Sequence record: PZ445521.1
Source of the DNA: a phage
Reading direction: 5' to 3' (one strand)
DNA length: 64,000 bases
In this document: piece after piece, positions 51,996 to 62,993 of the stretch
How the letters are laid out: every line of letters begins with the position of its first letter
Position numbering within the stretch: the first letter of the stretch is position 1
Notes under the pieces: generated by a model
What the model was told of the DNA's origin: nothing
Databases searched by the model: none
Seen by the model: only the letters and a program-made list of their open reading frames with translations
Made by a program: the position numbers and the translations under genes

Positions 51996-54900
51996 ATGGC
52001 CGAGATTAAAAGAAAGTTCAGAGCAGAAGATGGTCTGGACGCAGGTGGCGATAAAATAATCAACGTAGCTTTAGCTGATCGTACCGTAGGAACTGACGGT
52101 GTTAACGTTGATTACTTAATTCAAGAAAACACAGTTCAACAATATGATCCAACTCGTGGATATTTAAAAGATTTTGTAATCATTTATGATAACCGCTTTT
52201 GGGCTGCTATAAATGATATTCCAAAACCAGCAGGAGCTTTTAATAGCGGACGCTGGAGAGCATTACGTACAGATGCTAACTGGATTACGGTTTCATCTGG
52301 TTCATATCAATTAAAATCTGGTGAAGCAATTTCGGTTAACACTGCAGCTGGAAATGACATTACGTTTACTTTACCATCTTCTCCAATTGATGGCGATACT
52401 ATCGTTCTCCAAGATATTGGAGGAAAACCTGGAGTTAACCAAGTTTTAATTGTAGCTCCAGTGCAAAGTATTGTAAACTTTAGAGGTGAACAGGTACGTT
52501 CAGTACTAATGACTCATCCAAAGTCACAGCTAGTTTTAATTTTTAGTAATCGTCTGTGGCAAATGTATGTTGCTGATTATAGTAGAGAAGCTGTAATTGT
52601 AACACCAGCGAATACTTATCAAGCGCAATCAAATGATTTTATCGTACGTAGATTTACTTCTGCTGCACCAATTAATGTTAAACTTCCAAGATTTGCTAAT
52701 CATGGCGATATTATTAATTTCGTTGATTTAGATAAACTGAATCCACTTTATCATACAATTGTTACTACATACGATGAAACGACTTCAGTACAAGAAGTTG
52801 GAACTCATTCCATTGAAGGCCGTACATCGATTGACGGTTTCTTGATGTTTGATGATAATGAGAAATTGTGGAGATTGTTTGACGGGGATAGTAAAGCACG
52901 TTTACGCATTATAACGACTAATTCTAATATTCGTCCAAACGAAGAAGTTATGGTATTTGGTGCGAATAACGGAACAACTCAAACAATTGAGCTTCAGCTT
53001 CCAACTAATATTTCTGTTGGTGATACTGTTAAAATTTCCATGAATTACATGAGAAAAGGACAAACAGTTAAAATCAAAGCTGCCGGTGAAGATAAAATTG
53101 CTTCTTCAGTTCAATTGCTGCAATTCCCAAAACGTTCAGAATATCCGCCTGAAACTAAATGGGTAACTGTTCAAGAATTAGTTTTTAACGGTGAAACTAA
53201 TTATGTTCCAGTTTTACAGCTTGCTTATATAGAAGATTCTGATGGAAAATACTGGGTTGTACAGCAAAACGTTCCAACTGTAGAAAGAGTAGACTCTTTA
53301 AATGATTCTACTAGAGCAAGATTAGGCGTAATTGCTTTAGCTACACAGGCTCAAGCTAACGTCGATTTAGAAAATTCTCCACAAAAAGAATTAGCAATTA
53401 CTCCAGAAACATTAGCTAACCGTACTGCTACAGAAACTCGTAGAGGTATCGCAAGAATAGCAACTACTGCTCAAGTGAATCAGAACACCACATTCTCTTT
53501 TGCAGATGACCTTATCATCACTCCTAAAAAGCTGAATGAAAGAACAGCTACTGAAACTCGCAGAGGTGTTGCTGAAATTGCTACGCAGCAAGAAACTAAT
53601 ACAGGAACCGATGATACTACAATCATCACTCCTAAAAAGCTTCAAGCTCGTCAAGGTTCTGAATCATTATCTGGTATTGTAACTTTTGTATCTACTGCAG
53701 GTGCTACTCCAGCTTCTAGCCGTGAATTAAATGGTACGAATGTTTATAATAAAAACACTAATAATTTAGTTGTTTCACCTAAAGCTTTGGATCAGTATAA
53801 AGCTACTCCAACACAGCAAGGTGCAGTAATTTTAGCAGTTGAAAGTGAAGTAATTGCTGGACAAAGTCAGGAAGGATGGGCAAATGCGGTTGTAACGCCA
53901 GAAACGTTACATAAAAAGACATCAACTGATGCAAGAATTGGTTTAATTGAAATTGCTACGCAAAGTGAAGTTAATACAGGAACTGATTATACTCGTGCAG
54001 TCACTCCTAAAACTTTAAATGACCGTAGAGCAACTGAAAGTTTAAGTGGTATAGCTGAAATTGCTACACAGGTTGAATTCGACGCAGGCGTCGACGATAC
54101 TCGTATCTCTACACCATTAAAAATTAAAACCAGATTTAATAGTACTGATCGTACTTCTGTTGTTGCTCTATCTGGATTAGTTGAATCAGGAACTCTCTGG
54201 GACCATTATACCCTTAATATTCTTGAAGCAAATGAGACACAGCGTGGTACACTTCGTGTAGCTACACAGGTCGAAGCTGCTGCAGGAACATTAGATAATG
54301 TTTTAATAACTCCTAAAAAGCTTTTAGGTACTAAATCTACCGAATCGCAAGAAGGTGTTATTAAAGTTGCAACTCAGTCTGAAACTGTAGCTGGAACGTC
54401 AGCAAATACTGCTGTATCTCCAAAAAATTTAAAATGGATTGCGCAGAGTGAACCAACTTGGGCAGCTACTACTGCGATAAGGGGCTTTGTTAAAACTTCA
54501 TCTGGTTCAATTACATTCGTTGGTAATGATACAGTCGGTTCTACCCAAGATTTAGAACTGTATGAGAAAAATAGCTATGCGGTATCACCATATGAATTAA
54601 ACCGTGTATTAGCAAATTATTTACCGTTAAAAGCAAAAGCTGCTGATACAAATTTATTGGATGGTCTAGATTCATCTCAGTTCATTCGTAGGGATATTGC
54701 ACAGACGGTTAATGGTTCACTAACCTTAACCCAACAAACGAATCTGAGTGCCCCTCTTGTATCATCTAGTACTGCTACGTTTGGTGGTTCAGTTTCGGCA
54801 AATAGTACATTAACTATTTCTAATACTGGAACTGCAACTCGTCTGATTTTTGAGAAAGGACCTCAAACTGGAACTAACCCAGCACAGACGATGACTATTA

Positions 54901-55865
54901 GAGTTTGGGGAAATCAGTTTGGCGGCGGTTCAGATACAACACGTTCTACTGTATTTGAAGTTGGTGATGAAACATCTAATCACTTTTATTCTCAACGTAA
55001 TAAAGCTGGTAATATTACGTTTAGCATTAATGGTACTGTGATGCCAATAAATGTTAATGCTTCGGGTTCTTTAAATGCGAATGGCGTTGCAACATTTGGT
55101 AGTTCAGTTACAGCCAATGGTGAATTCATCAGCAAGTCTGCAAATGCTTTTAGAGCAATAAACGGTGATTATGGGTTCTTTATTCGCAATGATGCTGCTA
55201 ACACCTATTTTATGCTTACTGCATCGGGTGATCAGACTGGCGGATTTAATGGATTACGTCCTTTGTCTATTAACAATGCATCTGGTCAAGTAACGATCGG
55301 TGAAAGCTTAATCATTGCTAAAGGTGCTACTATAAATTCAGGTGGTTTGACTGTTAACTCGAGAATTCGTTCTCAGGGTACTAAAACATCTGATTTATAT
55401 ACCCGTGCACCAACATCTGATACGGTAGGATTCTGGTCAATTGATATTAACGATTCAGCTACTTATAACCAGTTCCCGGGTTATTTTAAAATGGTTGAAA
55501 AAACTAATGAAGTGACTGGACTTCCGTACTTAGAACGTGGCGAAGAAGTTAAATCTCCTGGTACACTGACACAGTTTGGTAACACACTTGATTCGCTTTA
55601 CCAAGATTGGATTACTTATCCAACGACACCAGAAGCGCGTACCACTCGCTGGACACGTACATGGCAGAAAACCAAAAACTCTTGGTCAAGTTTTGTTCAG
55701 GTATTTGACGGAGGTAACCCTCCTCAACCATCTGATATCGGTGCTTTACCATCTGATAATGCTACAATGGGGAATCTTACTATTCGTGATTTCTTACGAA
55801 TTGGTAATGTTCGCATTATTCCTGACCCAGTGAATAAAACGGTTAAATTTGAATGGGTTGAATAA
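51996..55865 (+). CDS. 34: long tail fibre proximal subunit gp34
   Basis: 1289 aa as T4 gp34. Confidence 0.95.
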   Translation: MAEIKRKFRAEDGLDAGGDKIINVALADRTVGTDGVNVDYLIQENTVQQYDPTRGYLKDFVIIYDNRFWAAINDIPKPAGAFNSGRWRALRTDANWITVSSGSYQLKSGEAISVNTAAGNDITFTLPSSPIDGDTIVLQDIGGKPGVNQVLIVAPVQSIVNFRGEQVRSVLMTHPKSQLVLIFSNRLWQMYVADYSREAVIVTPANTYQAQSNDFIVRRFTSAAPINVKLPRFANHGDIINFVDLDKLNPLYHTIVTTYDETTSVQEVGTHSIEGRTSIDGFLMFDDNEKLWRLFDGDSKARLRIITTNSNIRPNEEVMVFGANNGTTQTIELQLPTNISVGDTVKISMNYMRKGQTVKIKAAGEDKIASSVQLLQFPKRSEYPPETKWVTVQELVFNGETNYVPVLQLAYIEDSDGKYWVVQQNVPTVERVDSLNDSTRARLGVIALATQAQANVDLENSPQKELAITPETLANRTATETRRGIARIATTAQVNQNTTFSFADDLIITPKKLNERTATETRRGVAEIATQQETNTGTDDTTIITPKKLQARQGSESLSGIVTFVSTAGATPASSRELNGTNVYNKNTNNLVVSPKALDQYKATPTQQGAVILAVESEVIAGQSQEGWANAVVTPETLHKKTSTDARIGLIEIATQSEVNTGTDYTRAVTPKTLNDRRATESLSGIAEIATQVEFDAGVDDTRISTPLKIKTRFNSTDRTSVVALSGLVESGTLWDHYTLNILEANETQRGTLRVATQVEAAAGTLDNVLITPKKLLGTKSTESQEGVIKVATQSETVAGTSANTAVSPKNLKWIAQSEPTWAATTAIRGFVKTSSGSITFVGNDTVGSTQDLELYEKNSYAVSPYELNRVLANYLPLKAKAADTNLLDGLDSSQFIRRDIAQTVNGSLTLTQQTNLSAPLVSSSTATFGGSVSANSTLTISNTGTATRLIFEKGPQTGTNPAQTMTIRVWGNQFGGGSDTTRSTVFEVGDETSNHFYSQRNKAGNITFSINGTVMPINVNASGSLNANGVATFGSSVTANGEFISKSANAFRAINGDYGFFIRNDAANTYFMLTASGDQTGGFNGLRPLSINNASGQVTIGESLIIAKGATINSGGLTVNSRIRSQGTKTSDLYTRAPTSDTVGFWSIDINDSATYNQFPGYFKMVEKTNEVTGLPYLERGEEVKSPGTLTQFGNTLDSLYQDWITYPTTPEARTTRWTRTWQKTKNSWSSFVQVFDGGNPPQPSDIGALPSDNATMGNLTIRDFLRIGNVRIIPDPVNKTVKFEWVE

Positions 55866-55873
55866 GAGGTATT

Positions 55874-56989
55874 ATGGAAAAATTTATGGCAGAGTTTGGA
55901 CAAGGATATGTCCAAACGCCATTTTTATCGGAAAGCAATTCAGTAAGATATAAAATAAGCATAGCGGGTTCTTGCCCGCTTTCTACAGCAGGACCATACG
56001 TTAAATTTCAGGATAATCCTGTAGGAAGTCAAACATTTAGCGCAGGCCTTCATTTAAGAGTTTTTGACCCTTCCACCGGAGCATTAGTTGATAGTAAATC
56101 ATATGCTTTTTCGACTTCAAATGATACTACATCAGCTGCCTTTGTTAGTTTCATGAATTCTTTGACGAATAATCGAATTGTTGCTATATTAACTAACGGA
56201 AAGGTTAATTTTCCTCCTGAAGTAGTATCTTGGTTAAGAATCGCCGGAACGTCTGCTTTTCCATCTGACTCTATATTGTCAAGATTCGACGTATCATATG
56301 CTGCTTTTTATACTTCTTCTAAAAGAGCTATTGCATTAGAGCATGTTAAACTGAGTAATAGAAAAAGCACAGATGATTATCAAACTATTTTAGATGTTGT
56401 ATTTGACAGTTTAGAAGACGTCGGAGCTACCGGGTTTCCAAGAAGAACGTATGAAAGCGTTGAGCAATTCATGTCAGCGGTTGGTGGAACTAATAACGAA
56501 ATTGCGCGTCTACCAACTTCAGCTGCTATAAGTAAACTCTCTGATTATAATTTAATTCCTGGTGACGTTCTTTATCTTAAAGCCCAGTTATATGCTGATG
56601 CCGATTTACTTGCTCTTGGAACAACAAATATATCTATCCGTTTTTATAATGCATCTAACGGATATATTTCCTCGACACAAGCTGAGTTTACTGGACAAGC
56701 TGGGTCTTGGGAATTAAAGGAAGATTATGTAGTTGTTCCAGAAAATGCAGTTGGATTTACGATATATGCACAAAGAACTGCTCAAGCGGGACAAGGCGGT
56801 ATGCGAAATTTAAGCTTTTCTGAAGTATCAAGAAATGGCGGAATTTCAAAACCCGCTGAATTTGGCGTCAACGGCATTCGTGTTAATTATATCTGTGAAT
56901 CTGCTTCACCTCCGGATATAATGGTACTTCCTACACAAGCATCGTCTAAAACTGGTAAAGTGTTTGGGCAAGAATTTAGAGAAGTATAA
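55874..56989 (+). CDS. 35: long tail fibre hinge connector gp35
   Basis: 371 aa; synteny. Confidence 0.9.
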   Translation: MEKFMAEFGQGYVQTPFLSESNSVRYKISIAGSCPLSTAGPYVKFQDNPVGSQTFSAGLHLRVFDPSTGALVDSKSYAFSTSNDTTSAAFVSFMNSLTNNRIVAILTNGKVNFPPEVVSWLRIAGTSAFPSDSILSRFDVSYAAFYTSSKRAIALEHVKLSNRKSTDDYQTILDVVFDSLEDVGATGFPRRTYESVEQFMSAVGGTNNEIARLPTSAAISKLSDYNLIPGDVLYLKAQLYADADLLALGTTNISIRFYNASNGYISSTQAEFTGQAGSWELKEDYVVVPENAVGFTIYAQRTAQAGQGGMRNLSFSEVSRNGGISKPAEFGVNGIRVNYICESASPPDIMVLPTQASSKTGKVFGQEFREV

Positions 56990-57051: not shown

Positions 57052-57717
57052 ATGGCTGATTTAAAAGTAGGTTCAACAACTGGAGGCTCTGTCATTTGGC
57101 ATCAAGGAAATTTTCCATTGAATCCGGCCGGTGACGATGTACTCTATAAATCATTTAAAATATATTCAGAATATAACAAACCACAAGCTGCAGATAACGA
57201 TTTCGTTTCTAAAGCTAACGGTGGTACTTATGCATCAAAGGTAACATTTAATGCTGGTGTTCAAGTACCATATGCTATAAACAATACAAACCAAAGTGGT
57301 ATTTATCCTGGTAATGGAGATGCAGCTACTTTTGTTACAGCAAATATTGATATTGTTTCATGGTATGGCGTAGGATTTAAATCATCACAAGGATCTGCCG
57401 GTAGAACTGTAGTAATTAATACACGCAATGGTGATATTAGCACAAAAGGTGTTGTGTCGGCAGCTGGTCAAGTAAGAAGTGATGCGGCTGCTCCTATAGC
57501 AGCGAATGACCTTACTAGAAAGGACTATGTTGATGGAGCAATAAATACTGTTACAACAAATGCAAACTCTAGAGTGTTACGATCTGGTGACACTATGACG
57601 GGAAACTTAACCGCACCAAACTTTTTCTCGCAGAATCCTGCATCTCAACCTTCACATGTTCCACGATTTGACCAAATCGTAATTAAGGATTCTGTTCAAG
57701 ATTTCGGCTATTATTAA
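57052..57717 (+). CDS. 36: long tail fibre distal connector gp36
   Basis: 221 aa as T4 gp36. Confidence 0.92.
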   Translation: MADLKVGSTTGGSVIWHQGNFPLNPAGDDVLYKSFKIYSEYNKPQAADNDFVSKANGGTYASKVTFNAGVQVPYAINNTNQSGIYPGNGDAATFVTANIDIVSWYGVGFKSSQGSAGRTVVINTRNGDISTKGVVSAAGQVRSDAAAPIAANDLTRKDYVDGAINTVTTNANSRVLRSGDTMTGNLTAPNFFSQNPASQPSHVPRFDQIVIKDSVQDFGYY

Positions 57718-57725
57718 GAGGACTT

Positions 57726-60700
57726 ATGGCTACTTTAAAACAAATACAATTTAAAAGAAGCAAAACCGCAGGTGCACGTCCTGCTGCTTCAGTATTAGCC
57801 GAAGGTGAATTGGCTATAAATTTAAAAGATAGAACAATTTTTACTAAAGACGATTCAGGAAATATCATTGACTTAAGCATTTCCGCTGGCGGTAATATCA
57901 GTGGTAATATCACTCAAACTGGTGATTATACACAGACTGGAAAATTTAATTTAATTGGCCCGCAGATTATAGCAAGTGGTGGATATATTGAGTTTAATTA
58001 TCGTACTACTGGAAGTGGGGCTTGGTCCGGTCAACACACTGCAAAGGCTCCAATTTTTGTAGATTTAAGCTCAGCTACTTCCACATCTGAATATAATCCT
58101 ATAATTAAACAGCGCTTTAAAGATGGAACTTTTTCATTAGGTACTTTAGTTTCTGAAGGTTCGTTGAAGATTCATTATATTGATGAAACTGGTCAATCTA
58201 AATATTGGACATTTGCGCGCTCAGGTAATTTTCAAGTTGATTCTGGTAATTTATTAGTATCTGGTGGGTATTTAGTCGCTCAGAGTAATATTGAAACAAG
58301 AACAGGTTCTTTGATTGGTCCATCTGTTGTAACTAAAAATATTTCATTTGATACGAAAGCGTTTGGACAATACGATTCGCAGTCATTAGTTCAATATGTT
58401 TATCCTGGAACTGGTGAAACAAACGGAATTAATTACCTTCGTAAATTCCGTGCAAAATCTGGTGGTACGATTTATCATGAATTAGCTTCTGCACAAACCG
58501 GAAAAAGTGATGAACTGTCTTGGTGGACCGGTAATACAGCCGTTAATAAACAAATGGGCCTTCGCAATGATGGGTCTTTAGTGTTGCGACGCTCACTCGC
58601 AATTGGTACAATTACAACAGATGAAAACATTAATAATTACGGCTCAACTGGAGCAATGGGTGAATGCTATATAGTCATTGGAGATGCCGCAACTGGTGTA
58701 TCATATAAAAGATCTGGTGTATATGATTTAGTTGCTAATGGTCTTTCTATCGCGTCTATTACTCCTGACAGTTTCCGTAGTACTCGTAAAGCATTATTTG
58801 GACGTTCAGAAGACCAAGGCGGAACATGGAATATGCCTGGAACGAACGCCGCGTTTTTATCGGTTCAAACACAGGCTGATGAAAACACTGCTGGAGACGG
58901 TCAAACCCATATTGGATATAACTCTGGCGGTAAAATGAACCACTATTTCCGTGGTAAAGGAAAAACTAATATTAATACTCAAGAAGGCATGGAAGTTAAC
59001 CCGGGTATTTTGAAATTGGTAACTGGCTCTAATAATGTAATGTTTTATGCTGATGGCGGTATTACATCTGTTAAGCAGCTTTCAATATATAACGGCATAT
59101 ATTTAGCAGCTAATAATTCTACTGCTGGGCTAACATTCGCTCCAACTACTACAATTGATGGCACTAAGCAAATTTTGTGGGAAGGCGGTACTCGTGCTGG
59201 TCAGAATAAAAGCTATGTAACTGTTAAAGCATGGGGTAATTCATTTAACGCATCTGGCGATCGTAATCGTGAAACGGTTTTTGAAGTAGCTGATGGACAA
59301 GGATATTATTTTTATTCACAGCGTGTGGCTCCAAGTGGCTCTGAAACTACTGGGCCTGTTGTAACCCAGTTCAATGGACAAGTTAATGCTAGAGGAAGTA
59401 TTATTACTGACGGAAGTTTTAAAGTTAATGGATTAAGCACTTTAGTCGGTAATGTTACCATGTCTAATGGTTTGTTTGTTCAAGGTGGTTCTTCTATTAC
59501 AGGCCAAGTAAAAATTGGTGGAACAGCAGATGCATTAAGAATTTGGAATGCTGAATACGGGGCTATTTTCCGTCGTTCTGAAGATAAGCTTTATATTATT
59601 CCAACTCCGCAGAATGCTGGTGAATCAGGTGGTATTTCTAATTTACGTCCGTTCTATATTACATTAAGTACTGGTAAAGTTTCCATGGATCATGATGTAG
59701 ATATCGGCGGCGGTAGATTTAAAGTAGAAGTGGCTGGAACTACGGCTGGTCAACGTATTATAGTTAATGCAGCGAGCGATGCTATTAGAATAAATGCTCC
59801 AACACAAGAGTCTTCTAACTTCATTCAAGGACGTAAGGCTGATGTGAATAAATGGTATTTGGGTATTGGCGATGGCGGCAACGTCGTTCGTATGCACAGC
59901 TACACATATTCACATGGTATTGCATTAAATTCTGATTCTGTCGATATTACTAAGCCTCTTAAAGTCGGAAACGCCCAACTAGGAACTGACGGTAATATTA
60001 CCAATGGTTCAGGAAACTTTGCCAACTTAAATACCACGTTAAATCGTAAAGTTAATTCTGGATTTATTACTTATGGAGCAACCTCTGGATGGTATAAGTT
60101 TGCAACTGTAACAATGCCACAATCCACTTCAACAGTCTTCTTTAAAATAGTTGGAGGTTCTGGATTTAATAGCGGATTATTCACACAATGTAATATTGCT
60201 GAAATTGTTTTACGTACTAGTAATGAAAGACCTGCTGACTTAAATGCTGCATTATACACAAGAACAATTGGAGCTGCATTTAAAGATATTGCAGTTAATA
60301 ACGTCTCTGGAGATACATATGACATTTATGTTTCTGCTGGAACATATTGTAATCAATTAGCTTGTGAGTGGTCATGTACCGAAAATGCTACTGTTAGTGT
60401 TATTGGTATTAACTCATCTACACAATCACCTGTAGATGCTCTTCCAGATACAGCAGTTAACGGTCAAGTTGCTAATGTTCTTAATAACTTGGTTGATCGC
60501 GGTAAAGTTAAGCGTTATGAAGCCGATTCTGAAATAGCTATTAATAGCCCAACCGGTATTCGTATCAGAAGCAATGGCGATAAAACTGGTTCTGTGGCTA
60601 CAATGTTACGAAATGATGGCGGTAGTTTTTATATTCTGTTTACAGATAAAAATGCCACCGATGGCGCAGCAACTGTTAATGGTGATTGGAATAGTAAACG

Positions 60701-61487
60701 TCCTTTCGCAATTAACTTAACAACCGGCGAAGTGATGATGAATAATGGCATAGCTGTTCGCAGCGCTGCTTTATTCTATAATAGCATAAACGTCAAAGAT
60801 AATGGTTCTATTAACTTTGATAAATCAGGTGCTAACCCGAGAAATATGAGAATATTTCATGCTGGCGATGCTTCTCGCGGTAACCGTATTGAAATTGCCG
60901 ATGAAACTAACTATATTGCTTACTTTGAAAAAACTCCAGGTGGAGCTAACCGCTTTGTAGTAAATAATGCTACTGTGGCTGGTGTTAATCAAATGAATTC
61001 ATTTGGTATTAACATCAATAACGCACTTGGTGGAAACAGTATAGCATTTGGTGATAATGACACTGGCATTAAACAATCCGGTGACGGACTTCTTGATATC
61101 ATTACTAACGCCGCACGACGAATGAGATTCCAGACGGGTGACACTTATTCTGACATGAATATAAATGCTCCAAACGTTTATATTCGTTCTGATATTCGTT
61201 TGAAATCTAATTTCAGACCTATTGAAAATGCTCTTGAAAAGGTTGAGCAGCTTGATGGTTTAATCTATGATAAAGCTGACTATATAGGTGGTGAAATTGT
61301 TCAGACTGAAGCAGGTGTTATTGCTCAGAAATTGAACGAAGTATTACCTGAAGCAGTTCGTGAAGTTGAAGATATTAAGGGTAATAAAATACTCACTATT
61401 TCTTCTCAATCCCAGATTGCTCTTCTAGTTGAAGCTGTGAAAACACTTTCTGCTCGTGTAAAAGAACTTGAATCTAAACTTATGTAA
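57726..61487 (+). CDS. 37: long tail fibre distal subunit gp37, T2/T6-type with C-terminal chaperone-like domain
   Basis: 1253 aa; N-terminus as gp37; C-terminal about 100 aa from SDIRLKSN resembles an auto-cleaving intramolecular chaperone. Confidence 0.9.
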   Translation: MATLKQIQFKRSKTAGARPAASVLAEGELAINLKDRTIFTKDDSGNIIDLSISAGGNISGNITQTGDYTQTGKFNLIGPQIIASGGYIEFNYRTTGSGAWSGQHTAKAPIFVDLSSATSTSEYNPIIKQRFKDGTFSLGTLVSEGSLKIHYIDETGQSKYWTFARSGNFQVDSGNLLVSGGYLVAQSNIETRTGSLIGPSVVTKNISFDTKAFGQYDSQSLVQYVYPGTGETNGINYLRKFRAKSGGTIYHELASAQTGKSDELSWWTGNTAVNKQMGLRNDGSLVLRRSLAIGTITTDENINNYGSTGAMGECYIVIGDAATGVSYKRSGVYDLVANGLSIASITPDSFRSTRKALFGRSEDQGGTWNMPGTNAAFLSVQTQADENTAGDGQTHIGYNSGGKMNHYFRGKGKTNINTQEGMEVNPGILKLVTGSNNVMFYADGGITSVKQLSIYNGIYLAANNSTAGLTFAPTTTIDGTKQILWEGGTRAGQNKSYVTVKAWGNSFNASGDRNRETVFEVADGQGYYFYSQRVAPSGSETTGPVVTQFNGQVNARGSIITDGSFKVNGLSTLVGNVTMSNGLFVQGGSSITGQVKIGGTADALRIWNAEYGAIFRRSEDKLYIIPTPQNAGESGGISNLRPFYITLSTGKVSMDHDVDIGGGRFKVEVAGTTAGQRIIVNAASDAIRINAPTQESSNFIQGRKADVNKWYLGIGDGGNVVRMHSYTYSHGIALNSDSVDITKPLKVGNAQLGTDGNITNGSGNFANLNTTLNRKVNSGFITYGATSGWYKFATVTMPQSTSTVFFKIVGGSGFNSGLFTQCNIAEIVLRTSNERPADLNAALYTRTIGAAFKDIAVNNVSGDTYDIYVSAGTYCNQLACEWSCTENATVSVIGINSSTQSPVDALPDTAVNGQVANVLNNLVDRGKVKRYEADSEIAINSPTGIRIRSNGDKTGSVATMLRNDGGSFYILFTDKNATDGAATVNGDWNSKRPFAINLTTGEVMMNNGIAVRSAALFYNSINVKDNGSINFDKSGANPRNMRIFHAGDASRGNRIEIADETNYIAYFEKTPGGANRFVVNNATVAGVNQMNSFGININNALGGNSIAFGDNDTGIKQSGDGLLDIITNAARRMRFQTGDTYSDMNINAPNVYIRSDIRLKSNFRPIENALEKVEQLDGLIYDKADYIGGEIVQTEAGVIAQKLNEVLPEAVREVEDIKGNKILTISSQSQIALLVEAVKTLSARVKELESKLM

Positions 61488-61488
61488 A

Positions 61489-61506
61489 AGAGGGCTTCGG
61501 CCCTCT
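61489..61506 (+). terminator. hairpin between genes 37 and 38
   Basis: agagggcttcggccctct then T-rich tract. Confidence 0.5.
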
Positions 61507-61518
61507 AAGGATTTTTTA

Positions 61519-62304
61519 ATGGCAATTGTAGGTGTTCCTGGCTGGATTGGTGAATCTGCCGTGAATGAAACTGGACAACGTTGGATGGATGCTGCAATGA
61601 GAGCAGTCCGTGTTTCAGTTCCCGGTTGGATGAGCTCAATGGCCGGACAATCTAAAGAAGTATATTATAGCATTGGTGCTAGTAATTCTTATAATAAAGA
61701 TACATTAATAAACTGGATAAAAGCACAAGGGTCCACGCCTGTTGTTATTACTATTACAGGAAATATTGTTTCTCAATCTACTGGTGTTCCATGCTTAGAT
61801 TTTCCTAGCTCATTAACTAATGCATACGTGACACTTAATATCAATTCAGGCGTGCATGTTTGGGGCCGTGGCGGGAATGGCGGAAATAACTCTGCAGGTG
61901 GAGCAGGAGGAACTGCAATAAATAATGGAATTGGAACTAGATTGCGTATTAACAACAATGGTGTTATCGCAGGAGGCGGTGGCGGCGGTGGCGGCGGATA
62001 TTATTCTCCTTTTTCACAAATGAAATTGACTTTTGGCGGTGGCGGCGGTCGTCCATTTGGTGCTGCTGGCGGGTCTGCTAATATGGAACAGGGCGCTACT
62101 GCTGGTACTATTTCTGCACCTGGTAAAGGGTCTGTCAATGGTATCTATAATGGCGGGAATGGCGGTGATGCTGGTGCCGCAGGTGGTAAATGTAATATTC
62201 GTGGGCAAGGATCAGAATATAACGGCGGTGCGGCTGGTAAAGCTGTTACTGGTAATGCTCCAACTTGGACTAAGGTTGGTACAATATATGGTTCAAGAGT
62301 ATAA
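61519..62304 (+). CDS. 38: receptor-recognising adhesin gp38, T2/T6-type with glycine-rich motifs
   Basis: 261 aa from ATG at 61519 (AAGG RBS); several poly-Gly tracts; the track start at 61468 lies inside gene 37. Confidence 0.85.
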   Translation: MAIVGVPGWIGESAVNETGQRWMDAAMRAVRVSVPGWMSSMAGQSKEVYYSIGASNSYNKDTLINWIKAQGSTPVVITITGNIVSQSTGVPCLDFPSSLTNAYVTLNINSGVHVWGRGGNGGNNSAGGAGGTAINNGIGTRLRINNNGVIAGGGGGGGGGYYSPFSQMKLTFGGGGGRPFGAAGGSANMEQGATAGTISAPGKGSVNGIYNGGNGGDAGAAGGKCNIRGQGSEYNGGAAGKAVTGNAPTWTKVGTIYGSRV

Positions 62305-62336: not shown

Positions 62337-62993
62337 ATGGCAGCACCTAGAATATCATTTTCGCCCTCTGATATTCTATTTGGTGTTCTAGATCGCTTGT
62401 TCAAAGATAACGCTACCGGGAAAGTTCTTGCTTCCCGGGTAGCTGTCGTAATTCTTTTATTTATGATGGCGATTGTTTGGTATAGGGGAGATAGTTTCTT
62501 TGAGTACTATAAGCAATCAAAGTATGAAACATACAGTGAAATTATTGAAAAGGAAAGAAATGCACGCTTTGAATCTGTCGCCCTGGAACAACTCCAGATA
62601 GTTCATATATCATCTGAGGCAGACTTTAGTGCGGTGTATTCTTTCCGCCCTAAAAACTTAAACTATTTTGTTGATATTATAGCATATGAAGGAAAATTAC
62701 CTTCAACAATAAGTGAAAAATCACTTGGAGGATATCCTGTTGACAAAACTATGGATGAATATGCAGTCCATTTAAATGGACGTCATTATTATTCTGACTC
62801 AAAATTTGCTTTTTTACCAACTAAAAAGCCTACTCCCGAAATAAACTACATGTACAGTTGTCCATATTTTAATTTGGATAATATCTATGCTGGAACGATA
62901 ACCATGTACTGGTATAGAAATGATCATATAAGTAATGACCGCCTTGAATCAATATGTGCTCAGGCGGCCAGAATATTAGGAAGGGCTAAATAA
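62337..62993 (+). CDS. t: holin T
   Basis: 218 aa; single N-terminal TM helix. Confidence 0.93.
   Translation: MAAPRISFSPSDILFGVLDRLFKDNATGKVLASRVAVVILLFMMAIVWYRGDSFFEYYKQSKYETYSEIIEKERNARFESVALEQLQIVHISSEADFSAVYSFRPKNLNYFVDIIAYEGKLPSTISEKSLGGYPVDKTMDEYAVHLNGRHYYSDSKFAFLPTKKPTPEINYMYSCPYFNLDNIYAGTITMYWYRNDHISNDRLESICAQAARILGRAK

Follow-up and report, generated by a model that had tools for sequence, protein, structure and literature searches.

The founding members of the Peptidase S74 family are the chaperones of endosialidase K1F (endoNF, PDB 3GW6) and of the GA-1 neck appendage (PDB 3GUD). Both act on tailspikes or appendages that bear an enzymatic head, unlike the gp37 fibre studied here. 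C-terminal chaperones of this type are used by S16, T5, K1F, and phi29 (PMC7289586). In the T5 protein pb1, the chain is cut between Thr1263 and Ser1264, the proposed catalytic dyad is Ser1264/Lys1269, an upstream 'folding sensor' is made up of Arg1250 and Asp1239, and the long C-terminal helix forms a triple coiled coil; the tentacles of endoNF are longer (PMC4690869). The S16 gp37–gp38 complex (PDB 6F45) contains a fibre tip homologous to ours (GDNDTG..GDG), an intramolecular chaperone (IMC) domain with an S-D-x-R-x-K motif, and a gp38 with three docking tryptophans. According to PMC7917993, the IMC domain is the last 113 residues of S16 gp37, and its autocleavage exposes the surface on which gp38 docks. 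A related domain, the ICA of MYRF (PDB 7DC3), belongs to a eukaryotic membrane-bound protein, in which it frees a transcription factor, whereas in gp37 it would serve fibre maturation.

Among the T-even phages, gp37 of T2 reportedly undergoes proteolytic processing, known since 1986 (Drexler et al.), after which gp38 caps the fibre (PMC3157838). T4 gp37 lies at the same gene position and shares a homologous N-terminal part and shaft (Gp34_trimer match), but its tip carries Collar and Phage_fiber domains and no S74 domain by Pfam, and two separate proteins, gp38 and gp57A, act as chaperones in its folding. The two proteins called gp38 are unrelated: that of T4 is an assembly chaperone and does not become part of the fibre, whereas that of the locus described below is of the adhesin type.

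The long tail fibre locus and the gp37 precursor

We analysed a 64-kb stretch of phage DNA (the window), in which the genes of a T-even long tail fibre lie together on the + strand (Table 1). The gp37 precursor gave Pfam matches to gp37_trimer, Gp34_trimer, and Peptidase_S74, and its sequence was 100% identical to the gp37 of Shigella phage JK38 (MK962755; Tequatrovirus, Straboviridae) and Escherichia phage vB_Eco_QOTSP (OY720014). A sequence-only reading of this DNA had given gp37 as 1253 aa, longer than the 1026 aa of T4 gp37, and both lengths proved correct. The C-terminal sequence reads ...NAPNVYIR-SDIRLKSNFRPIENALEKVEQLDGLIYDK...VKELESKLM. Codon 1155 (TCT, Ser) begins at position 61188 and the stop codon TAA occupies 61485-61487, so that the interval 61188-61487 holds exactly Ser1155 to Met1253 (99 aa) plus the stop, with Arg1154 (61185-61187) just outside. 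No open reading frame of 50 aa or more was found on the opposite strand of this interval, and scans of the whole window detected neither tRNA genes nor Rfam families at the gathering threshold.

Table 1. Features of the fibre locus, with positions in the 64-kb window.
Feature	Position	Strand	Size, basis, or remark
gp34	51996-55865	+	fibre block
gp35	55874-56989	+	fibre block
gp36	57052-57717	+	fibre block
gp37 precursor, long tail fibre distal subunit	57726-61487	+	open reading frame; 1253 aa, calculated mass 134.0 kDa
Predicted mature gp37, aa 1-1154	57726-61187	+	123.05 kDa, ends ...NVYIR; by analogy with S16, fPS, and T5
Distal tip of mature gp37, about aa 1097-1154	61014-61187	+	homologous to the gp38-carrying S16 gp37 tip
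Predicted scissile bond Arg1154^Ser1155 (codons CGT TCT)	61185-61190	+	alignment with S16, fPS, T5, and GA-1
Catalytic motif S1155-D-I-R-L-K1160 with Ser as the nucleophile and Lys (+5) as the general base	61188-61205	+	from conservation and T5 spacing
IMC domain, aa 1155-1253	61188-61484	+	99 aa, 10.97 kDa, pI 4.9
Long C-terminal IMC helix, aa 1227-1252	61404-61481	+	model helix H103-128; trimeric coiled coil expected by analogy
7-bp hairpin with UUCG loop (AGAGGGC-UUCG-GCCCUCU)	61489-61506	+	g37-g38 spacer, one base past the gp37 stop
gp38 adhesin	61519-62304	+	261 aa; expected partner, docking on the tip exposed by cleavage
Holin t	62337-62993	+	3' of gp38

Comparison with T2 gp37 (NC_054931) showed that the protein of the window is a mosaic. 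It is 88 aa shorter than its T2 counterpart (1341 aa); identity is 75% over the N-terminal 650 aa and 76% over the last 165 aa (aa 1089-1253), whereas the central shaft (about aa 660-1090, window 59700-61000) is about 50% identical or unalignable.

Two side observations concern the neighbouring sequences. In the JK38 record (MK962755), a 730-bp gp37 segment (window 59701-60430; gp37 nt 1976-2705) is duplicated in tandem, which causes a frameshift, and gp37 is annotated there as two coding sequences; the intact 3762-bp gene is present in vB_Eco_QOTSP and in the window. The duplication may be either an assembly artefact or genuine in that isolate. In the fibre hinge protein gp35, aa 58-113 match the Pfam family ILEI (PF15711, 'interleukin-like EMT inducer') above the gathering score, with an E-value of 1.4e-8. 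T4 gp35 gives an equal match (E 1.1e-8), so the ILEI match appears to be a conserved, little-discussed feature of T-even gp35.

The C-terminal domain and its family

The last 100 residues or so of gp37 had been likened, from the sequence alone, to the chaperones of endosialidase and T5 fibre proteins, and this likeness was borne out by profile, homology, and structure comparisons. The Pfam profile PF13884 (Peptidase_S74, 'chaperone of endosialidase') aligned with aa 1155-1212 over its full length (positions 1-58 of 58), and the score of 54.4 bits was above the gathering score of 22; the E-value was 1.6e-14 with the whole of gp37 and 3e-16 with the 99-aa fragment alone. NCBIfam gave no match, neither for gp37 nor for the 99-aa domain. 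A phmmer search with the last 199 aa of gp37 retrieved chain 6f45_A, the S16 gp37 construct, at E 1.9e-10, in an alignment that spans the mature tip (GDNDTG..GDG), the SD-R-K motif, and the C-terminal helix. With a profile built from 31 homologues, 6f45_A was matched at E 1.8e-22, together with the tail fibre 8JOV, the MYRF ICA (7DC3), and the GA-1 neck appendage chaperone (3GUD). The 99-aa domain had homologues in 1740 phage records; in a sample of 40 rows, most belonged to genes with a tail fibre annotation.

An AlphaFold2 model of aa 1125-1253 (129 aa) reached a pLDDT of 93-98 across the IMC domain, where it shows one short helix, a pair of beta-hairpins, and a C-terminal helix of 26 residues. 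The modelled domain has the helical hairpin, beta-hairpin 'tentacle', and long C-terminal coiled-coil helix of the IMC fold, and in a Foldseek search it matched solely the IMC structures of T5 pb1, endosialidase, GA-1, and MYRF. Its position is also that of an IMC, at the very end of the protein (the final 99 aa) and behind a tip whose homologue in S16 gp37 is a trimeric beta-helix.

The T2 protein carries the same domain. Over the 99 residues its C-terminus (aa 1243-1341) is 82% identical to that of the window, Pfam places S74 at 1243-1300, and the junction NVYIR/SDIRLKSNF is identical in the two phages. The earlier suggestion that the domain fits the processing of T2 gp37 agrees with this near-identity to a C-terminus which, in the T2 account cited above, is cleaved before gp38 caps the fibre. 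About 120 residues are reportedly removed from T2 gp37; our alignment predicts the removal of 99 (1243-1341). The domain of the window, at 99 residues, is shorter than the 113 given for S16.

A tail of ordinary helices or coiled coils, with neither chaperone nor protease role, might have resembled these domains by chance. Nothing spoke in favour of such a resemblance, the tests run on gp37 refuted it, and we accord it next to no probability, the likeness of the C-terminus to S74 chaperones being, as judged from sequence, far beyond chance. The results indicate that the last 99 residues of gp37 are very probably a self-cleaving intramolecular chaperone of the S74 type, after whose removal the tip would be capped by gp38. 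The feature is already known, since it is detectable with Pfam, T2 has the 82%-identical domain, and solved structures are available for S16, T5, and K1F. It adds no new phage biology and is structurally explained by S16 and T5.

Catalytic motif and predicted cut

At the start of the domain, the dyad Ser1155/Lys1160 is intact. In an alignment of 32 homologues, Asp1156 and Lys1160 were invariant and Ser1155 was kept in at least 90%, and the spacing of Ser and Lys (+5) equals that of Ser1264 and Lys1269 in T5. The cut sites described for S16 gp37 (DLNVS^SDRRIKK) and for the related Tequatrovirus fPS phages (DVYIR^SDGRLKI) both lie directly before this serine (PMC7917993), as does that of T5. The deposited GA-1 chaperone chain 3GUD starts with SDERHK at the aligned Ser-Asp, which marks where the released chaperone begins. 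By alignment with these proteins, the cut in gp37 is expected to fall before Ser1155, with the serine departing with the chaperone. The sequence-only reading had put it at a 'Ser-Asp junction'; the bond has to be moved to the other side of the serine, as in T5, S16, and GA-1, whereas its end of the mature chain at residue 1154 was right. Cleavage would yield a 123-kDa mature fibre chain and an 11-kDa released fragment, and for annotation mature gp37 should be taken as ending at Arg1154.

Arg1154 precedes the predicted cut in gp37, where S16 has a serine and T5 a threonine. This position is variable across the homologues, so the arginine is not a real objection to cleavage. The stretches before the cut differ too (DLNVS in S16, NVYIR here), and the spacer from the triangular domain to the cut is longer in S16.

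The same observations bear on the question of which enzyme makes the cut. An S74-type chaperone could be removed by a host protease or another phage protease instead of by itself, a reading that was open when the processing of T2 gp37 was first described. The secondary source on T2 and T6 says only 'proteolytically cleaved' (PMC3157838), and catalysis within gp37 is a prediction from its sequence. The dyad, however, is intact and conserved, and the homologues in S16, T5, K1F, and MYRF are autocatalytic. Free variation of the residue before the serine is as expected of self-cleavage and speaks against a sequence-specific enzyme. We consider an external protease highly improbable and autocleavage the preferred reading.

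In T5 and K1F, cleavage is coupled to correct beta-helix folding by a sensor upstream of the cut, an arginine contributed by a neighbouring chain together with an acidic partner, and we searched for counterparts in gp37. Counting back from the cut, the spacing of the T5 sensor (Arg1250/Asp1239) was not conserved. Candidates for a sensor arginine are R1131, R1132, R1134, and R1154, and candidates for its acidic partner are D1139 and D1143; in the monomer model, the first 26 residues have a pLDDT below 50, which makes it unreliable ahead of the cut. At the T2-type junction an arginine precedes the cut, the chaperone is shorter (99 aa), and residues like those upstream in S16 are not evident. Such a junction may use a folding sensor unlike that of endosialidase and T5, or the released acidic 11-kDa trimer may have a second role, such as gating the attachment of gp38. 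No pointers to a different sensor or to a second role were found, and we regard this proposal as very unlikely.

The fibre tip, gp38, and the proposed maturation

The limits of the tip in Table 1 follow the phmmer alignment to 6f45_A, which begins at residue 43 of a query fragment starting at aa 1055. Directly downstream of gp37 lies a gp38 adhesin of the T2/S16 type. Its Pfam matches were Gp38_N, the attachment domain (E 8e-18), and the glycine-rich GP38 (E 3.5e-72). Compared with the S16 chain 6f45_D, it scored E 2.7e-49, and W9, W22, and W37 aligned with the S16 gp38 tryptophans; in S16, the three N-terminal tryptophans plug gp38 into the gp37 tip. [quoted passage not shown] A 'lock and key' concept has been put forward in which gp37 tips and gp38 N-termini match by subtype (PMC3157838). 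Since the last 165 aa of gp37 and aa 1-47 of gp38 are both of the T2 subtype, the two proteins form a matched T2-subtype pair. The anticipated gp38 binding site at the mature tip is consistent with this arrangement, and for engineering, gp38 swaps must retain a matching T2-type gp37 tip.

These findings also bear on whether the chaperone leaves the fibre at all. It might remain in place after maturation as a trimerisation cap that is never shed, in the manner of the P22 tailspike's caudal fin, which is not cleaved, with gp38 binding elsewhere. Some auto-chaperone modules are indeed uncleaved (PMC4690869), but nothing specific to gp37 favours such a cap. Catalytic residues are present, cleavage is reported for the T2 protein with its 82%-identical domain, and S16 gp38 docks on a surface that removal of the IMC domain lays bare, for which the gp38 of the window keeps the docking tryptophans. 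On these three grounds we rejected the permanent cap, which appears extremely unlikely, and retained the reading in which the chaperone is removed and gp38 caps the tip.

The maturation of the fibre in this phage can be proposed by analogy with endosialidase K1F, T5 pb1, and S16 gp37. The 134.0-kDa precursor would be made first, and the three IMC domains of three chains would then join, with the C-terminal helices (aa 1227-1252) forming a coiled coil. This IMC trimer would bring the three chains into register and serve as the template on which the neighbouring interdigitated triple beta-helix folds. Once the beta-helix is correctly formed, Lys1160 would activate Ser1155, and the Arg1154-Ser1155 bond would be cut in each chain. 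The acidic chaperone would depart as three fragments of 11 kDa (10.97 kDa each), and the exposed flat tip (...NVYIR) of the 123.05-kDa chains would become the docking surface for one gp38, which would insert W9, W22, and W37. Recombinant gp37–gp38 constructs need the chaperone for folding.

The start of gp38 required a correction. Mechanical open reading frame calling chose a TTG codon at 61468, which would make gp38 overlap with the 3' end of gp37; judged by the Gp38_N match in Pfam and by the alignments with T2 and S16, the gene really begins with the ATG at 61519 (MAIVGVPGW...). The hairpin in the spacer between the two genes is perfectly paired over its 7 bp, folds with -13.4 kcal/mol, and is terminator-like in a scan, with a stability that is not significant against shuffled sequences (z -1.47). 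An identical hairpin with the same UUCG loop follows the gp37 stop in T2. Before the gp38 ATG, the hairpin is followed by a Shine-Dalgarno sequence (AAGGA) and by a run of U residues.
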